Shown: positions 18,986 to 23,964 of the stretch, piece by piece
Layout: each line of letters begins with the position of its first letter
Position numbering within the stretch: position 1 is the stretch's first letter
Source: a virus
Lineage: Duplodnaviria > Caudoviricetes
DNA length: 24,083 nt
Strand: one strand, 5' to 3'
Virus record (IMG/VR): IMGVR_UViG_3300032305_001759
Location: 1-24,083 of that record
The notes under the pieces: generated by a model
Seen by the model: the letters and a program-made list of their open reading frames with translations, nothing else
Told to the model about the DNA's origin: nothing
Databases searched by the model: none
Translations under genes and position numbers: made by a program

Positions 18986-19094
18986 AGATGAACAATAGGT
19001 AAACAATAATTCACAGGTTATACCCAAGTTATGCACAATTCACAGGTTATGCACAGGCTGTGGACAAAGTGTATCCAATAGAACATTTGTTCGA
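18986..19094. promoter_or_regulatory. Cluster of DnaA-like boxes plus LexA-type SOS box
   Basis: TTATACCCA 19018, TTATGCACA 19029 and 19047, TGTGGACAA 19059, TAGAACATTTGTTCGA 19079-19094. Confidence 0.7.
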
Positions 19095-19095
19095 G

Positions 19096-19182
19096 TGGCG
19101 CGATTTGCCCCAAAATTTAATTAAGATAGAGAGAAAATCGCCTTGAATACTTGGCGCGATTTGGTTGAAAATTAAATTAAGA
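19096..19182. repeat. 31-bp imperfect direct repeat TGGCGCGATTTG-N4-AAAATTwAATTAAGA
   Basis: Copies at 19096-19126 and 19152-19182. Confidence 0.8.
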
Positions 19183-19208
19183 CGAATTTAAAAATTGTCT
19201 GAAGCTTT

Positions 19209-19355
19209 TTAGAAATCATCATCATCATCAAAATAATTTTCTATTTCTTGGTCACTCTCGCACATAATGCAATAGTTAATTTCCCAAGCCGTTAATTTAT
19301 CATCACAAGTCAAGCACTTATTCTTGGTGATGTTTTCAAATGCTAGTTCAGTCAT
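19209..19355 (-). CDS. 48-aa Zn-finger microprotein with acidic tail (paralog of 19795-19920)
   Basis: Not in the ORF track. MTELAFENITKNKCLTCDDKLTAWEINYCIMCESDQEIENYFDDDDDF; GAGGGG SD. Confidence 0.8.
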   Translation of the reverse strand: MTELAFENITKNKCLTCDDKLTAWEINYCIMCESDQEIENYFDDDDDF

Positions 19356-19361
19356 TTTTTA

Positions 19362-19550
19362 TTACCCCTCAATCATTTCGCAAATCAATGCACCGATAGC
19401 AGATACTAAACCGATAACGGCGGTTACTATCATCACATTGACAGACATAAAATCAAATCCGATAACTAGTAGTTGTAATTCTAGTAGTAGTGCAGGTAAT
19501 GACATAACTGCAATAGTAACTAGTGGAGCGATTAGATTGTAAAGAAACAT
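19362..19550 (-). CDS. Small two-TM membrane protein
   Basis: 62 aa, hydrophobic; AGAAAGAG SD; downstream of a promoter and RNA element. Confidence 0.7.
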   Translation of the reverse strand: MFLYNLIAPLVTIAVMSLPALLLELQLLVIGFDFMSVNVMIVTAVIGLVSAIGALICEMIEG

Positions 19551-19569
19551 TTTTTCTCTTTCTGTTAGT

Positions 19570-19631
19570 GTTGAGATTTATTTGCTAGGCTCATTCGGTT
19601 TCCCGACTTATTTGCTAGGCTCACTCTCAAC
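19570..19631 (-). ncRNA. Candidate structured leader RNA, copy 1
   Basis: RNA GUUGAGA-G-UGAGCCUAGCAAAUAA-G-UCGG-GAAA-CCGA-A-UGAGCCUAGCAAAUAA-A-UCUCAAC between promoter and SD. Confidence 0.7.
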
Positions 19632-19646
19632 CTTTCTTATAGTCTT

Positions 19647-19668
19647 AACTTAGCATACCTGACTGACA
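19647..19668 (-). promoter_or_regulatory. TGTCAG-N10-TAnnnT promoter (leftward)
   Basis: TGTCAG-TCAGGTATGC-TAAGTT. Confidence 0.75.
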
Positions 19669-19680
19669 ATTTCTACCTGA

Positions 19681-19790
19681 ATCTCACTATTTGAGATGAA
19701 CAGTAGGTGAACAATAAATCACAGGTTATCCACAGCTGCCCGCGCCCACGCTGTCGGGCGTGTCGTTATGTGTGATCAAAAATGCCCTGG
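19681..19790. promoter_or_regulatory. Regulatory island 1 (GCCCGCGCCC core)
   Basis: ATCTCA-N5-TGAGAT 19681, 11-bp-period TGAAC repeat about 19697-19712, TTATCCACA 19726, GCCCGCGCCC 19738, GGGCGTGTCG 19756. Confidence 0.7.
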
Positions 19791-19794
19791 ACTT

Positions 19795-19920
19795 TTATTC
19801 GTATGTAGAATAATCGTCAGGCTCACACATAATGCAGTAGGTATTTTCCCACGATGTTAATTTGTCATCACACTCAATACATTTTGTATTGGTGATGTTT
19901 TCAATTAGTAATTCATTCAT
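19795..19920 (-). CDS. 41-aa Zn-finger microprotein
   Basis: Not in the ORF track. MNELLIENITNTKCIECDDKLTSWENTYCIMCEPDDYSTYE; GAAAGGA SD. Confidence 0.8.
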   Translation of the reverse strand: MNELLIENITNTKCIECDDKLTSWENTYCIMCEPDDYSTYE

Positions 19921-19939
19921 AATGAATCCTTTCGTTAGT

Positions 19940-19997
19940 GCTAAGACTTATTTGCTAGGCTCATCCGTTAGGCTTATTTGCTAGGCTCATTCTTAAC
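19940..19997 (-). ncRNA. Candidate structured leader RNA, copy 2
   Basis: RNA GUUAAGA-A-UGAGCCUAGCAAAUAA-G-CC-UAAC-GG-A-UGAGCCUAGCAAAUAA-G-UCUUAGC; stems covary with copy 1. Confidence 0.7.
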
Positions 19998-20008
19998 TAT
20001 TTAATTTT

Positions 20009-20030
20009 AATCTATCAGATAGGTCTGACA
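20009..20030 (-). promoter_or_regulatory. TGTCAG-N10-TAnnnT promoter (leftward)
   Basis: TGTCAG-ACCTATCTGA-TAGATT. Confidence 0.75.
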
Positions 20031-20034
20031 GTTT

Positions 20035-20169
20035 TTATCCGTAGTATTCATTGAATTCATCTACGGTCATTTTACCTTTGTAGGTATCACAGCAGAACAT
20101 CTGGTCAGCAGACATTTCACTTTCACAGAAGCAACAGATGTATTCTGTTTCATTTAGTAAGTTAAACAT
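20035..20169 (-). CDS. 44-aa Cys-rich microprotein
   Basis: Not in the ORF track. MFNLLNETEYICCFCESEMSADQMFCCDTYKGKMTVDEFNEYYG; AGAAAGGAG SD. Confidence 0.75.
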   Translation of the reverse strand: MFNLLNETEYICCFCESEMSADQMFCCDTYKGKMTVDEFNEYYG

Positions 20170-20199
20170 TCTTAACTCCTTTCTTTATCTTATGTCTTT

Positions 20200-20221
20200 A
20201 GACTAGCAGAGGGGTCTGACA
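20200..20221 (-). promoter_or_regulatory. TGTCAG-N10-TAnnnT promoter (leftward member of divergent pair)
   Basis: TGTCAG-ACCCCTCTGC-TAGTCT. Confidence 0.8.
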
Positions 20222-20237
20222 TTTTTACCCCTTTTTC

Positions 20238-20378
20238 GGGCGTGTCGCAAAACTATTTTTGTGATGTACATCATAGAACATCTGTTCGAATGCCCGCGCC
20301 CTTGTGGATAACCTGTGTATAAGATGGCTATAAAATGCCCCTGAAAAGTTTACCAAATGTTTACCTAAACACACCCCC
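20238..20378. promoter_or_regulatory. Regulatory island 2 between divergent promoters
   Basis: GGGCGTGTCG 20238, TGTGA-N6-TCATA 20260, TAGAACATCTGTTCGA 20274, GCCCGCGCCC 20292, TGTGGATAA 20303, TGTGTATAA 20314, GTTTAC-N5-GTTTAC 20348-20364. Confidence 0.75.
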
Positions 20379-20392
20379 TAAATGGCATAAAT

Positions 20393-20414
20393 TGTCAGAC
20401 CCCTAGTGTATGAT
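20393..20414 (+). promoter_or_regulatory. TGTCAG-N10-TAnnnT promoter (rightward)
   Basis: TGTCAG-ACCCCTAGTG-TATGAT. Confidence 0.8.
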
Positions 20415-20445
20415 GAAATCATAAGACAAAAAGAAAGAGGTCAAA

Positions 20446-20631
20446 ATGACTTACTTAGTAACAAACAAGAGAGACAACATCTCTAACGAATACATCTCTA
20501 TTCACTCTGCCTTGCAAATGGTTGCAAGTTGCTATGACGGTGCAGGTATCACTTGCGAAATCGTAGACACCCAAACGGGTGAACAGGTAGAAATCTATCG
20601 AGATACCCTAAGGGGCTGGCGTGTCGCTTAG
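20446..20631 (+). CDS. Hypothetical early protein
   Basis: 61 aa; AGAAAGAGG SD after promoter. Confidence 0.7.
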   Translation: MTYLVTNKRDNISNEYISIHSALQMVASCYDGAGITCEIVDTQTGEQVEIYRDTLRGWRVA

Positions 20632-20637
20632 CGAAAC

Positions 20638-20659
20638 TGTCAGACCTCTATGCTAAAGT
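20638..20659 (+). promoter_or_regulatory. TGTCAG-N10-TAnnnT promoter
   Basis: TGTCAG-ACCTCTATGC-TAAAGT. Confidence 0.8.
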
Positions 20660-20688
20660 AAAACTAACAAACAAAGAAAGGGCATCAA

Positions 20689-20856
20689 ATGTCACTAGCA
20701 CTAATCTCAATCACAATCCTACTATCTAGCCTATTTGCTGGATTCCTTGCTTATGCTGTAATAACTATCAGCGAACTAAAGAAAAATAAAAAGATGTGGG
20801 AACAAGCCTACACACAATTAGCCATTGAATTTATGGTACTAAAGGCAGGTAAGTAA
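20689..20856 (+). CDS. 55-aa membrane protein
   Basis: MSLALISITILLSSLFAGFLAYAVITISELKKNKKMWEQ...; AGAAAGGG SD. Confidence 0.7.
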   Translation: MSLALISITILLSSLFAGFLAYAVITISELKKNKKMWEQAYTQLAIEFMVLKAGK

Positions 20857-21023
20857 TGATGACACGCAAAGACTACATCAAAATTGCAGAAATTCTAAAT
20901 GCTTATCACTTAGACATTGACTCACAAGTATTTGAGGATTTGCTTTCAGACTTTCAAACATTTTTCAAAAGAGATAATTCAAACTTCGACTTAACACGAT
21001 TCAGAGATGCGGTAATTAAATAA
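20856..21023 (+). CDS. 55-aa phage protein (MTRKDY...DNxNFDxxRF type)
   Basis: MMTRKDYIKIAEILNAYHLDIDSQVFEDLLSDFQTFFKRDNSNFDLTRFRDAVIK; TAATG-coupled. Confidence 0.75.
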   Translation: MMTRKDYIKIAEILNAYHLDIDSQVFEDLLSDFQTFFKRDNSNFDLTRFRDAVIK

Positions 21024-21175
21024 TGAAAATACAACACAACAAAATTGACGGAACTTTCGTAATTGGAATTTCTTTCTCTAACTACTACAACAAAAAAACT
21101 TCAACCAAAAATACTTCCCTGATTTTTGATTTAGGTTCTCGCTCACTTGCATTTACATTTAGAGGTGACTACTAA
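21023..21175 (+). CDS. 50-aa hypothetical protein
   Basis: MKIQHNKIDGTFVIGISFSNYY...; TAATG-coupled at both ends. Confidence 0.65.
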   Translation: MKIQHNKIDGTFVIGISFSNYYNKKTSTKNTSLIFDLGSRSLAFTFRGDY

Positions 21176-21255
21176 TGAATAGTTTTTATTCTTGGGTTTT
21201 AATTTTATCCCTTGCAGGTTTTGTTTATTTGCTTGTAGATAATTTTACAGACTAA
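21175..21255 (+). CDS. 26-aa hydrophobic peptide
   Basis: MNSFYSWVLILSLAGFVYLLVDNFTD; GAGGTG SD, TAATG overlap. Confidence 0.55.
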   Translation: MNSFYSWVLILSLAGFVYLLVDNFTD

Positions 21256-21261
21256 CAAAAC

Positions 21262-21352
21262 GAGCTGATCGAACGCCTGTTCGAAAAGCCCGCGCCCCTG
21301 TGGATAACTATTGTTATGATAGTTAAGAAATAGCCTGGAATATTCTGGAAAA
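21262..21352. promoter_or_regulatory. Regulatory island 3 with perfect SOS box
   Basis: TCGAACGCCTGTTCGA 21269-21284, GCCCGCGCCC 21288, TGTGGATAA 21299. Confidence 0.75.
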
Positions 21353-21385
21353 TTTTTATAAATTATTTCTAATAAACCTATTTTT

Positions 21386-21407
21386 TGTCAGACCCTTGTG
21401 CTAGTAT
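21386..21407 (+). promoter_or_regulatory. TGTCAG-N10-TAnnnT promoter
   Basis: TGTCAG-ACCCTTGTGC-TAGTAT. Confidence 0.8.
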
Positions 21408-21437
21408 CAGAGATACCTACTAAGAAATGAGAACGAC

Positions 21438-21974
21438 ATGAGCTACGAAAACACCTACCGCCAAATTGTTGCACAGGCTAAGCCGTCACAGATTGAACAA
21501 GCCACACAATGGTATGCAGATGCTGAGGCAGTTGCTCATGAAGTAGTGTCTATCTATAAGTCAAGAGGCATGGATGTATCTTTAGAACAGGCTGCTTCGA
21601 TAATTTCAGCGTTCTCACCTCGTCAGCGTTGGTCAACCAATGTTCGTCAGGCACTTAGATTTGCTCATGGCGATGAGGAAATGCGTTGCCTACCTAACAA
21701 TCTTAAAATGGCTAAGAGTGCTTTAGAAAATGGTTTCAATGCACTTAATGGAAAGAAAACAAATTCATTTGCTCGTAACATTGCAGGTGATCAAAATGCA
21801 ATCACGATTGACATTTGGATGATGAGGTCAGCAGGTATTCCAAAAGATAGTCCTAGTAAAAAAGACTACACACAATTATCTGAGGCGATTGAAAAAATTG
21901 CAATGGAAACTGCAATGACACCTCGTACCGTTCAAGCATTGGTATGGATTGTGTATAGGGGTAGTGCTGCATGA
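21438..21974 (+). CDS. Phage protein of DUF7178-like family (possible helix-hairpin-helix DNA-glycosylase-related fold)
   Basis: WY...SP.Q.W..N...KT.SF..NI.G...TID.WM.R...Y..L...I......P..VQA..W motif pattern. Confidence 0.55.
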   Translation: MSYENTYRQIVAQAKPSQIEQATQWYADAEAVAHEVVSIYKSRGMDVSLEQAASIISAFSPRQRWSTNVRQALRFAHGDEEMRCLPNNLKMAKSALENGFNALNGKKTNSFARNIAGDQNAITIDIWMMRSAGIPKDSPSKKDYTQLSEAIEKIAMETAMTPRTVQALVWIVYRGSAA

Positions 21975-22068
21975 AAAAGCCCGCGCCCCGTTTTCCACAG
22001 GCTGTTAAGAAGTTGTGGATAAGTCCCTTGAAAAGTTTACCAAATGTTTACTTTAGACACGCCCTGAA
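21975..22068. promoter_or_regulatory. Regulatory island 4
   Basis: GCCCGCGCCC 21979, TTTTCCACA 21991, TGTGGATAA 22014, TGAAAAGTTTACCAAATGTTTAC 22029-22051 (identical to 20342-20364), GACACGCCC 22056. Confidence 0.75.
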
Positions 22069-22078
22069 ATACTAAAAT

Positions 22079-22100
22079 TGTCAGACCCCTATGGTAAAGT
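22079..22100 (+). promoter_or_regulatory. TGTCAG-N10-TAnnnT promoter
   Basis: TGTCAG-ACCCCTATGG-TAAAGT. Confidence 0.8.
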
Positions 22101-22127
22101 GAAACCATAATGAAAGGAAGTACCAAA

Positions 22128-22280
22128 ATGAATGGTAACTCAAAAGTCGTAATTCTACGCAAGGCTATGTCTGCCCTTGAACTTGCAGATAGTCACGCTA
22201 AGCACGGTGACACCCGTACAGAAAAAATCTGGCGTGATGAATACACACGCTTAATGAATCGTTACTTAGGAGTGAAATAA
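22128..22280 (+). CDS. 50-aa hypothetical protein
   Basis: MNGNSKVVILRKAMSALELADSHAKHGDTRTEKIWRDEYTRLMNRYLGVK; GAAAGGA SD. Confidence 0.7.
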   Translation: MNGNSKVVILRKAMSALELADSHAKHGDTRTEKIWRDEYTRLMNRYLGVK

Positions 22281-22471
22281 TGAGAGTCTATGAAATTGCT
22301 AAGGAACTTAGTATTCCTTCAAAAGATGTCAGAATGTATTTAGAATACATTGGGCAACCCGTAAAGTCTGCATCGTCAAGCGTTGAACCAATGTTTGCTG
22401 AAATAGTTATCAAAAGAATAAACAAGACCTATGAGGAATTTGTGCCTTGTTGGTCATTCCCACCATTCTAA
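22280..22471 (+). CDS. Stand-alone translation initiation factor IF2 N-terminal (IF2_N) domain protein
   Basis: MRVYEIAKELSIPSKDV...L..IG..VKSASSSVE matches the actinobacterial IF2 N-terminus pattern RVxELAKExGxxSKxV...L...GEFVxSASSTxE. Confidence 0.8.
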   Translation: MRVYEIAKELSIPSKDVRMYLEYIGQPVKSASSSVEPMFAEIVIKRINKTYEEFVPCWSFPPF

Positions 22472-22473
22472 AA

Positions 22474-22495
22474 TGTCACACCTCTATGCTAGAAT
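22474..22495 (+). promoter_or_regulatory. TGTCAC-N10-TAnnnT promoter (variant)
   Basis: TGTCAC-ACCTCTATGC-TAGAAT. Confidence 0.7.
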
Positions 22496-22527
22496 AAATA
22501 CCCTACCTACAAGAAATGAGAAATAAA

Positions 22528-22812
22528 ATGGGACTAAACTTCGCAACTGAATTATCCACTATGGATACAATGCCAATGGAGCAACAGATTAACTTGCACC
22601 TACAATACAATTTCTATCCACCCGTTCCATCGTCAATGGTACAGCCTTGCATAGATGCTATCAACGCAATTTGGAATGAGGACTACTTTGCAGAAATAGA
22701 ATTGCCTCAAGGCGTTCTATGGCGTGGTAGTAACTATGCACCTGCTCAAGCAATTGCAGACAATCATAGATTAGATGCTTGGCTAATGGTAGATGACTGG
22801 GAGGACGAATGA
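22528..22812 (+). CDS. Hypothetical phage protein (HLQYNFYPPVP motif)
   Basis: Track ORF 22516-22812; start moved to 22528 because the 22516 ATG lies inside the recurrent AGAAATGAGA leader motif. Confidence 0.75.
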   Translation: MGLNFATELSTMDTMPMEQQINLHLQYNFYPPVPSSMVQPCIDAINAIWNEDYFAEIELPQGVLWRGSNYAPAQAIADNHRLDAWLMVDDWEDE

Positions 22813-22940
22813 AATTTATAGCAAGCCCTGAGCAACTTAGGGCACGTCTTGAGTTGCGTAGAAGTAACGCCTCTGCTAAACACGTTAATAAAAAAAAGTA
22901 TTCCAGAAAACCAAAACACAAAAAGGAATTGTTTGACTAA
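22809..22940 (+). CDS. 43-aa highly basic peptide with ArfA-like tail
   Basis: MKFIASPEQLRARLELRRSNASAKHVNKKKYSRKPKHKKELFD; GGAGG SD; ATGA overlap. Confidence 0.7.
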   Translation: MKFIASPEQLRARLELRRSNASAKHVNKKKYSRKPKHKKELFD

Positions 22941-23071
22941 TGAAATTTATCTTTGCACTATTTGTAATTGCACTTCTTGTATTGCCTGTCATTGGTTTTG
23001 TTGATGGACTTGGTTATAAAAAAAATAATAATGAATTTTTAGATACTGCAAGATGGATAGATGGGAAGTAG
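22940..23071 (+). CDS. 43-aa membrane protein
   Basis: MKFIFALFVIALLVLPVIGFVDGLGYKKNNNEFLDTARWIDGK; TAATG-coupled. Confidence 0.6.
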   Translation: MKFIFALFVIALLVLPVIGFVDGLGYKKNNNEFLDTARWIDGK

Positions 23072-23072
23072 G

Positions 23073-23148
23073 CAGCTGAAAAAGCCCGCGCCCCCTGTGG
23101 ATAACTTTATTTAAGAAGTTAAGAAAAGATCCTGGACCCCCTGGAAAA
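23073..23148. promoter_or_regulatory. Regulatory island 5
   Basis: CAGCTG 23073, GCCCGCGCCC 23084, TGTGGATAA 23096, GATCCTGG and CCTGG 23128-23144. Confidence 0.75.
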
Positions 23149-23150
23149 AT

Positions 23151-23172
23151 TGTCAGACCCTTATGCTATGAT
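23151..23172 (+). promoter_or_regulatory. TGTCAG-N10-TAnnnT promoter
   Basis: TGTCAG-ACCCTTATGC-TATGAT. Confidence 0.8.
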
Positions 23173-23203
23173 GAAATCATACCTACTAAAGAAATGAGAT
23201 GTT

Positions 23204-23446
23204 ATGTTTACACTTAATAACATTCGTAAGAATGAAGAATTAAATTACTTAGTTTCTTCCCTGCCTTGTCCAAATTGTGATAGCACTCTATCTGTTGAAA
23301 TTACCCCTGACAAATTGTGGGCTTACAATCAAGGTGGCTATGCCCAAGATGTATTGTCTGCCTACGATGAGGGTGTTCGTGAGCGTTTCATTACTGGAAT
23401 GTGTGAAATTTGTTGGGCTCTAATGTTTGATTTTGATGATGAATAA
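23204..23446 (+). CDS. Zn-ribbon protein
   Basis: 80 aa; CPNC...Q.V......RE.FITG.C..CW..MF. Confidence 0.75.
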   Translation: MFTLNNIRKNEELNYLVSSLPCPNCDSTLSVEITPDKLWAYNQGGYAQDVLSAYDEGVRERFITGMCEICWALMFDFDDE

Positions 23447-23448
23447 AA

Positions 23449-23470
23449 TGTCAGACCCTTGTGATAAGAT
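23449..23470 (+). promoter_or_regulatory. TGTCAG-N10-TAnnnT promoter
   Basis: TGTCAG-ACCCTTGTGA-TAAGAT. Confidence 0.8.
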
Positions 23471-23498
23471 AAAACTACCTACTAAGAAATGAGATAAA

Positions 23499-23621
23499 AT
23501 GTCAGATACAGATTTGATTAAAGATTTATTCGAGGGTGTCATAGATGACAATGCCCTTGCAAAATTGTCTAAAGAAGAATTAGATGCAATTAACAAAATG
23601 CTAACGGAAGCAGGTTACTAA
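23499..23621 (+). CDS. 40-aa acidic protein
   Basis: MSDTDLIKDLFEGVIDDNALAKLSKEELDAINKMLTEAGY after the conserved leader motif. Confidence 0.7.
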   Translation: MSDTDLIKDLFEGVIDDNALAKLSKEELDAINKMLTEAGY

Positions 23622-23622
23622 A

Positions 23623-23964
23623 ATGGGTGCAAGAATTAATTTCGTATTTGATGACGGAACAGATAGTCTAGTTAATCTTTATTCACATTGGGGCGAGTCT
23701 AATTGGAAAGATGATTTAGTACACGCATTGGTACACGCACAACCACGAAAAGGTGATACCTCATACTTTACCCGTATGGTTATCTCACACCTAATGAAAG
23801 ACCAGATGTTAGATGAAACTGGTTTTGGTATCTATGCAATTAGCCGTTCAGAGATTGGTAACCAATTATTTGACAAGACAGTTGTATTAGATTTAGTAAA
23901 CAACCTACTTACTGATTTAGATAATGATTATTCGGTTGAATTGTATGGAGAGGTGTTTGCATAA
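23623..23964 (+). CDS. Hypothetical phage protein (MGAR...LYSHWG type)
   Basis: 113 aa; LYSHWG...A.PR.GD.SY.TR...ETGFGI motif. Confidence 0.75.
   Translation: MGARINFVFDDGTDSLVNLYSHWGESNWKDDLVHALVHAQPRKGDTSYFTRMVISHLMKDQMLDETGFGIYAISRSEIGNQLFDKTVVLDLVNNLLTDLDNDYSVELYGEVFA

Follow-up and report, generated by a model that had tools for sequence, protein, structure and literature searches.

Results

Two Repeated Leader Structures in the Early Region

The window, by which we mean the whole stretch of 24,083 nt analysed here, is a 24-kb virus record in which minus-strand tail and structural genes are followed by a promoter-dense region; the small genes of this region are transcribed divergently, starting at ~20.3 kb. 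Two leader elements lie on the minus strand of this region (Table 1). The initial annotation had described four exact copies of a 16-mer arranged as two elements, and all four are present on the minus strand. There is no fifth copy in the window with up to three mismatches allowed, and shuffled versions of the window contain a mean of 0.42 matches at this threshold, never four. The outer stems (GUUGAGA:UCUCAAC and GUUAAGA:UCUUAGC) and the inner hairpins (UCGG-GAAA-CCGA and CC-UAAC-GG) pair as had been proposed. Both elements were also said to begin just after a predicted transcription start; indeed, a promoter-like TGTCAG-N10-(−10) box lies upstream of each, the start sites themselves being putative. 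ACUAAC with a purine-rich, SD-like run follows both window elements, although this arrangement is not general among the relatives. Compared with 200 shuffles, element 1 folds better (z −3.3), whereas element 2 does not (z +0.79). Single contigs from two independent DNA runs (X3 and X4) cover 19563-19998 and differ from the window there by one substitution and one gap apiece, and therefore the pair of elements is no assembly artefact.

Table 1. Positions in the window of the two elements, their 16-mers, promoters, leaders and genes
Feature	Position	Strand	Description	Score
Element 1	19570..19631	−	Outer stem of 7 bp; two loop modules, head to head, joined by a central helix of 4 bp; inner hairpin of 4 bp with GAAA loop	77.9 bits
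Element 2	19940..19997	−	Outer stem of 7 bp; two loop modules, head to head; inner hairpin of 2 bp	71.9 bits
Element 1, first 16-mer	19608..19623	−	Outer-module short strand, central helix, inner-module long strand	
Element 1, second 16-mer	19578..19593	−	Inner-module short strand, central helix, outer-module long strand	
Element 2, first 16-mer	19974..19989	−		
Element 2, second 16-mer	19948..19963	−		
Promoter-like box before element 1	19647..19668	−	Element begins at ~+10 of the putative start site	
Promoter-like box before element 2	20009..20030	−	Element begins at ~+5 of the putative start site	
Behind element 1: ACUAAC spacer, SD-like purine run	19556..19569	−	Stem-to-AUG 19 nt	
Behind element 2: ACUAAC spacer, SD-like run	19927..19939	−	Stem-to-AUG 19 nt	
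62-aa hydrophobic ORF behind element 1	19362..19550	−	No Pfam or PHROG family; element-free in some relatives	
48-aa ORF, second gene of the unit	19209..19355	−	Two CxxC pairs; no family	
41-aa CxxC ORF behind element 2	19795..19920	−	Paralogue of the 48-aa ORF; no family	

Promoter boxes of this kind number ten in the window (19647-23470), against 0.5 expected, and two of the ten carry an element. The TGTCAG box stands ten bases before the −10 and there is no −35 hexamer; related genomes contain 8-22 boxes each, mostly clustered. The TGTCAG box resembles an activator box centred near −30, where a putative activator might bind. Between the two elements, at the end of the 41-aa ORF, lies a terminator-like hairpin with a U-run (~19782-19822, minus strand).

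The early region (19029-23679) also holds all 10 matches of the window to the DnaA-box consensus and three GACAC motifs, with LexA-type boxes at 19079, 20274 and 21269, and the same region of three relatives (G155, G156 and G158) contains 4-7 CRP-type palindromes; the DnaA, LexA and CRP consensuses used are those that we take to describe the host sites. These matches may be regulatory sites or DNA decoys, and they suggest a decoy-rich region. A GC-rich repeat, GCCCGCGCCC, occurs in intergenic stretches at 19738, 20292, 21288, 21979 and 23084, mostly beside DnaA-type boxes. On the plus strand, 22280-22471 encodes a protein that consists of an IF2 N-terminal domain on its own (above the Pfam cut-off for IF2_N) and is common in close relatives, and 22809-22940 a 43-aa basic early peptide shared by 4/5 related genomes. 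The Atlas neighbours of this peptide include L5 gp78, DUF7230 and ArfA clusters, and it is possibly a ribosome- or RNA-binding peptide.

The best genome matches of the DUF7455 and IF2_N-domain ORFs of the window are to Actinomycetota, and the related genome G154 encodes a WhiB. Together, IF2_N, DUF7455 and WhiB point to an actinobacterial host, an assignment made at the level of the phylum. G154 also encodes a phage FtsZ (L452:9229-10164) that has both domains and is ~60% identical to actinobacterial FtsZ; as to the host, it points no further than to Actinomycetota in general. A freshwater or lake label is attached to 11 of the 18 DNA runs that contain at least one third of the region's words. 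The relatives have genomes of ~100-119 kb, several of them with direct terminal repeats.

Covariation Points to a Small Asymmetric Loop as the Unit

The repeated unit is not the 16-mer; it is a small, asymmetric loop in which UGAG-C stands opposite C-RAN-UAA. Within an element, a short central helix forms between the two 16-mers and places two copies of the loop head to head. Across all search sets, the middle 4-5 letters that form this helix are exactly complementary in 193/193 distinct double elements, 168 of which contain self-complementary CUAG, the form selected by the searches, while the other 25 were found without requiring pairing. These 25 fall into six combinations, every one compensated: some exchange C-G for G-C, in either order, others have 1-bp insertions that match on the two strands, and there is a further A-U swap. 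The C-G swap fixes the register of the helix: of the two Cs that follow UGAG, the first is bulged out and the second is paired. The 16-mer, considered invariant in the initial annotation, is so within the window, but its middle 4-5 letters covary in relatives, and no double element keeps the 16-mers while losing their complementarity.

The surrounding helices behave in the same way. Hairpins are formed by 88 of 90 distinct spacers (24.8 when shuffled), and the outer flanks pair over a mean run of 4.76 bp compared with 1.50 bp for exchanged partners (74 flanks). In an alignment of 55 elements, picked from 102, 85.6% of the cells assigned to pairs are paired, compared with 67.4% after shuffling (0/500 shuffles reached the observed value) and 24-42% when slid; kinship inflates such shuffle comparisons, and the anchored pairing counts are independent of them. 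Together, these results support the earlier proposal that 5′ leaders contain, on the transcribed strand, a pseudo-twofold RNA that is conserved and covaries.

Within the loop, 9 of the 12 letters never vary over 200 partner copies (up to three substitutions allowed), and position 3n is U in 199/200; of the variable positions, L1 is always a purine and L3 is free. A near-invariant loop with a free L3 fits a recognised surface from which L3 is flipped out. The non-canonical pairs are probably a sheared G2n-A2b and an A1n-U1b, and a G-C pair presumably closes the three-base loop; since these letters never vary, none of these pairs can covary.

Loops are combined freely, with one to four per element and stacking in either polarity. 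There are lone modules (L061, L066, L099, L267, L275 and L319), tandem-nested modules (L082, L276 and L553) and threes in which a module is wrapped round a double (L027, L037, L050 and others). These forms do not support the proposal of one large symmetric loop for a dimeric protein or a symmetric ligand; the symmetry of the element arises because two copies of an asymmetric loop join through a self-complementary helix.

Two further observations concern the stems. In a subclass with a CCUAG stem (L018, L050, L060, L070, L093, L099, L241, L249, L267 and L319), the element is separated from the SD by an A-rich linker and one more hairpin that looks covarying. In some elements (L001, L002, L009, L045, L050 and others), the inner hairpin is a CRP-type (48/193) or LexA-type (5/193) palindrome, and such hairpins can, as far as their letters go, serve both as DNA site and as RNA stem.

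Comparison with k-Turns and Ribosomal Protein Sites

The loop can be described in the notation of k-turns, such as HmKt-7, U4 and box C/D (PMC5061560, PMC8191799). In common with a standard k-turn, it has a three-base RAN loop between C(−1b):G(−1n) and U(1b), a covarying canonical helix on the other side, purines at L1 and L2, a free L3 and A1n; G2n and A2b are found in 200/200 copies, their geometry being presumed. It differs in that 1b is U in 200/200 copies instead of G and in having an invariant C that bulges out of the canonical helix. In standard k-turns, G1b defines the first G-A pair and is read by L7Ae-family proteins (PMC5061560). The phage loop would thus work like a k-turn without being a standard member, and a kink is predicted from this likeness. 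K-turns with a Watson-Crick 3b:3n pair are predicted, by published rules, to fold poorly in ions alone, as protein-bound k-turns do (PMC5061560, PMC8191799). The Watson-Crick 3b:3n pair of the phage loop therefore argues for protein binding, by rules that were derived from standard k-turns. An alternative geometry is a loop-E-type GA/UA stack without a kink.

The nearest look-alike that we found, by sequence, is the H77/H78 junction of host 23S rRNA, which, with the rplA leader, is the binding site of L1 (PMC3616713, PMC10931766). In Nanopelagicaceae 23S rRNA this junction has a GA-G strand opposite C...AAA-UA, with a G-A pair and an unpaired A as in the phage loop, and position 1b is likewise not G in host rRNA or rplA leaders (U, A or C). 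In contrast, the host sites have C-G at 3b:3n (2 rRNA, 4 leaders), whereas the phage loop has A-U (199/200) and the additional bulged C, and the L1 leader precedes rplK/rplA, whereas small unrelated phage genes lie behind the phage element. Because of this difference at 3b:3n, L1 is only a candidate partner, and an improbable one. Identity of the loop with Kt-78 was rejected, as Kt-78 has A-G at 3b:3n and fits a standard k-turn inside H78 (PMC5061560). The L10(L12)4 leader, or Kt-42, is also a k-turn with a bulged cytosine; there, this C lies in the non-canonical stem and two adenosines are needed (PMC3616713), whereas the phage C lies in the canonical helix. There is no match to the Rfam L10 leader.

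Occurrence in Phages and Searches in Hosts

The element had been considered to belong to no named family, and no Rfam 15 family exceeds its gathering threshold in the window. At E ≤ 10, Rfam returned nothing real (best E 0.45 locally), and in 9 related loci it returned tRNAs only. Against GenBank phages, blastn gave one 25-nt chance match for the element and none for the early region. Literature searches found no description of the motif. Fremin 2023 (PMC10690425) mined the same database; the tables drawn from that study give no match, and an anonymous candidate there may cover the element. The present analysis adds a k-turn-like register, in which 1b is U and a C is bulged, as well as a comparison with the L1 sites of the host, the either-arm, per-genome distribution and the absence from some relatives.

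In IMG/VR, the exact 16-mer was found at 119 loci (~550 estimated), and the double pattern at 120 metagenome loci (~1,000 estimated). Among 80 loci chosen by a neighbouring protein, independently of the motif, 50 contain at least one paired module, compared with 2 in 485 kb of shuffled sequence; among loci with full flanks the count is 13/24. The remaining 30 of the 80 are element-free, as are the near-complete genomes G159, G160 and G162, and the element is thus common but dispensable. Five near-complete genomes have one strong double element each, inside the promoter cluster. A relaxed descriptor and the covariance model revealed no divergent form in the 30 negative loci, one of which (L506) contains a truncated true element. 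Matches in L520, L543 and G159 were rejected as coding or unpaired chance, and most of the 121 loci from a loose single-module scan were likewise unpaired chance matches.

A host copy of the loop was sought with the covariance model, which recovers the element in all 5 phage genomes, and none was found in 151 Nanopelagicales genomes; in 13 genomes, loop patterns occur at control level. In GTDB, a single 14-nt pattern gave scattered single matches in unrelated taxa, which we took as chance, and two of the best 80 of 120 matches are doubles, located on MAG contigs of 1.5-1.9 kb, one with a clear phage promoter context.

Position Relative to Promoters, Arms and Genes

In 111 of 120 contexts, a promoter-like site lies within 90 nt upstream of the element (59 box-type and 67 TTG-type, as patterns counted without a shuffle control). 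The downstream ORFs in these contexts encode many unrelated small proteins, which are not ribosomal and share no common function, and in 33/120 the next promoter box follows within 45 nt with no gene between. The AUG is never closer than 25 nt to the last UAA of the element, and the SD pairs with the element at a mean probability of 0.025 over 84 leaders, exceeding 0.3 in 1/84. No terminator tail follows the element; a T-rich run does so in 9/136 cases.

Counted from the divergence point, 31 of 40 elements belong to the first unit of their arm, and of 19 neighbouring pairs, 8 are divergent, with one element per arm, and 11 are co-directional. In a set of 27, made up of the window and the 26 relatives closest to it, 13 carry the element in the left arm only, 12 in the right arm only, 1 in both and 1 in neither. 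After four short-flank loci were dropped and identical gene orders merged, 16 distinct arrangements remain (8/6/1/1; Fisher p 0.006), the relatives not being independent. The 62-aa gene is present both with and without the element among close relatives. This either-arm pattern implies that neither arm nor gene needs the element in cis, and the element appears to be kept per genome, not per gene. Recombination between the repeated promoters, moving and not copying the element, could account for the arm exclusivity; selection would be unneeded.

In G154, the element lies ~180 nt from its promoter, behind another folded RNA. A multi-stem non-coding RNA of ~160 nt stands just upstream of the element in this genome (L448:9323-9482) and in L483 (1868-2027), two distinct contigs; together with the element it has a z of −4.9, and it has no Rfam match.

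Discussion

We consider the element best explained as a protein-binding decoy RNA acting in trans, a reading that we favour tentatively and hold somewhat short of an even chance. The element would stand at the 5′ end of an early, presumably transcribed phage RNA, as a hairpin with two near-invariant asymmetric loops and a predicted k-turn-like kink, likely protein-bound, and in trans it would soak up a putative host RNA-binding protein early in infection. Both the trans role and a host rather than a phage partner are what we infer. We chose the decoy because the element is kept per genome, whatever its gene, arm, polarity or copy number, and because the earliest promoters carry it amid DNA matches that resemble host sites. 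Against the decoy, the absence of the loop from the host genomes searched leaves no natural ligand to mimic, some loci and near-complete relatives do without the element, and the divergent one-per-arm pairs (8/19) and first-unit placement (31/40) are as in nut and put sites. Two RNA runs (X19 and X20) were rejected as evidence of transcription, since their word shares are small and they consist of contigs only, which extend into the promoter region.

Pseudo-ToxI repeats and RNA anti-CRISPRs likewise consist of repeated RNA units that bind protein; they have a promoter of their own, are expressed early and copy a host RNA. The phage loop differs from such decoys in that a host copy was not found. 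A related reading, rather unlikely in our estimation, is that of a stackable natural aptamer, a k-turn-like loop distinguished by U1b and the bulged C, that a large group of lake actinophages evolved without a host template and multiplied in nested and head-to-head arrays, and that titrates a core host RNA-binding protein. Its targets would be L1 or another translation or transcription factor in the first minutes of infection, and it would be the RNA counterpart of the DnaA-, LexA- and CRP-type sites.

A possible, if somewhat unlikely, alternative is a cis-acting antitermination or processivity signal, in which the nascent loop binds RNA polymerase or a Nus-type or phage factor and would let transcription continue through the early arm. 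HK022 putL/putR and lambda nut (PMC9378689, PMC8632103) are likewise structured RNAs of ~60-70 nt soon after early promoters, sometimes one per divergent arm, as some of the phage elements are. Promoter-proximal position, placement in the first arm unit and independence of the downstream gene all agree with such a signal, as does the terminator-like hairpin after the 41-aa ORF near 19782, and, as for put (PMC9378689), a host counterpart would be unneeded. However, the phage element is a single rod of stacked loops, without the two-stem V shape or the boxA/boxB of those sites, and it usually occupies one arm only; its loops come in both polarities and in 1-4 copies, whereas put is a fixed two-stem structure. 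Furthermore, arms with identical genes occur with and without the element, most downstream genes have their own promoter box, and there is no carrier-specific N-like gene. Terminator-like sites are not clearly enriched in carrier arms (25 in 33 kb) relative to other arms (10 in 24.7 kb) or non-carriers (13 in 21 kb), all three counts being below those on the antisense strand.

It is unlikely that the element is a cis-acting 5′ stabiliser or translation enhancer, that is, a protein-bound folded leader that blocks 5′-to-3′ decay or aids ribosome loading. Its place near the presumed 5′ end and the distance of at least 25 nt from last UAA to AUG, with the SD left open, would suit this role, whereas just 2 of the 10 box promoters of the window carry an element, no gene precedes the next promoter in 33/120 contexts, and the same gene also occurs without it. 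In G154, moreover, the element is far from the promoter and lies behind another folded RNA, and a plain hairpin would need no nine invariant loop letters.

Less likely still, the element is bound by an RNA-binding protein that the phage itself encodes and that marks early transcripts or represses them. Such a site would explain why a host counterpart was not found, and the early region does encode small basic and IF2_N-domain proteins; on the other hand, no gene family is shared by all 6 carriers and missing from the 3 non-carriers (small proteins may escape BLAST in this comparison), and the element leaves the ribosome-binding site uncovered.

The initial annotation had raised a riboswitch and, as speculation, the binding of a cyclic dinucleotide; many invariant unpaired purines in a 5′-leader position would be in keeping with a riboswitch, or an aptamer, whose ligand is small and perhaps symmetric. 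We now regard this as highly improbable: the element has no expression platform, given the low SD pairing and the absence of a terminator, the downstream genes are unrelated or missing, the single-loop forms abolish the symmetry, and there is no Rfam match. Finally, a DNA operator of direct repeats, to which exact repeats near promoters, a region full of DNA sites and inner stems matching CRP- or LexA-type palindromes might point, is made very unlikely, to the point of being negligible, by the single, tandem-nested and triple loops, and is further opposed by the finding that all 252 matches (up to two mismatches) share the anchor orientation, by a spacing that is continuous from 24 to 36 bp without helical period, by changes in one copy that are compensated in the other, and by inserted hairpins that split the halves.

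Whichever of these readings holds, the element is a very common and well-supported structured RNA in freshwater Actinobacteria phages, whose host-takeover biology is, to our knowledge, nearly unknown. The loop is small enough for direct synthesis and testing. If the proposed structure is true, the rules of k-turns would extend to a natural U1b variant, and the element would be a natural double-kink rod. Once the partner is identified, the element would prove to be either part of a phage decoy strategy of a new kind or a put-like antiterminator; we know of no put-like antiterminator outside the lambdoid phages, and this one would be the first.
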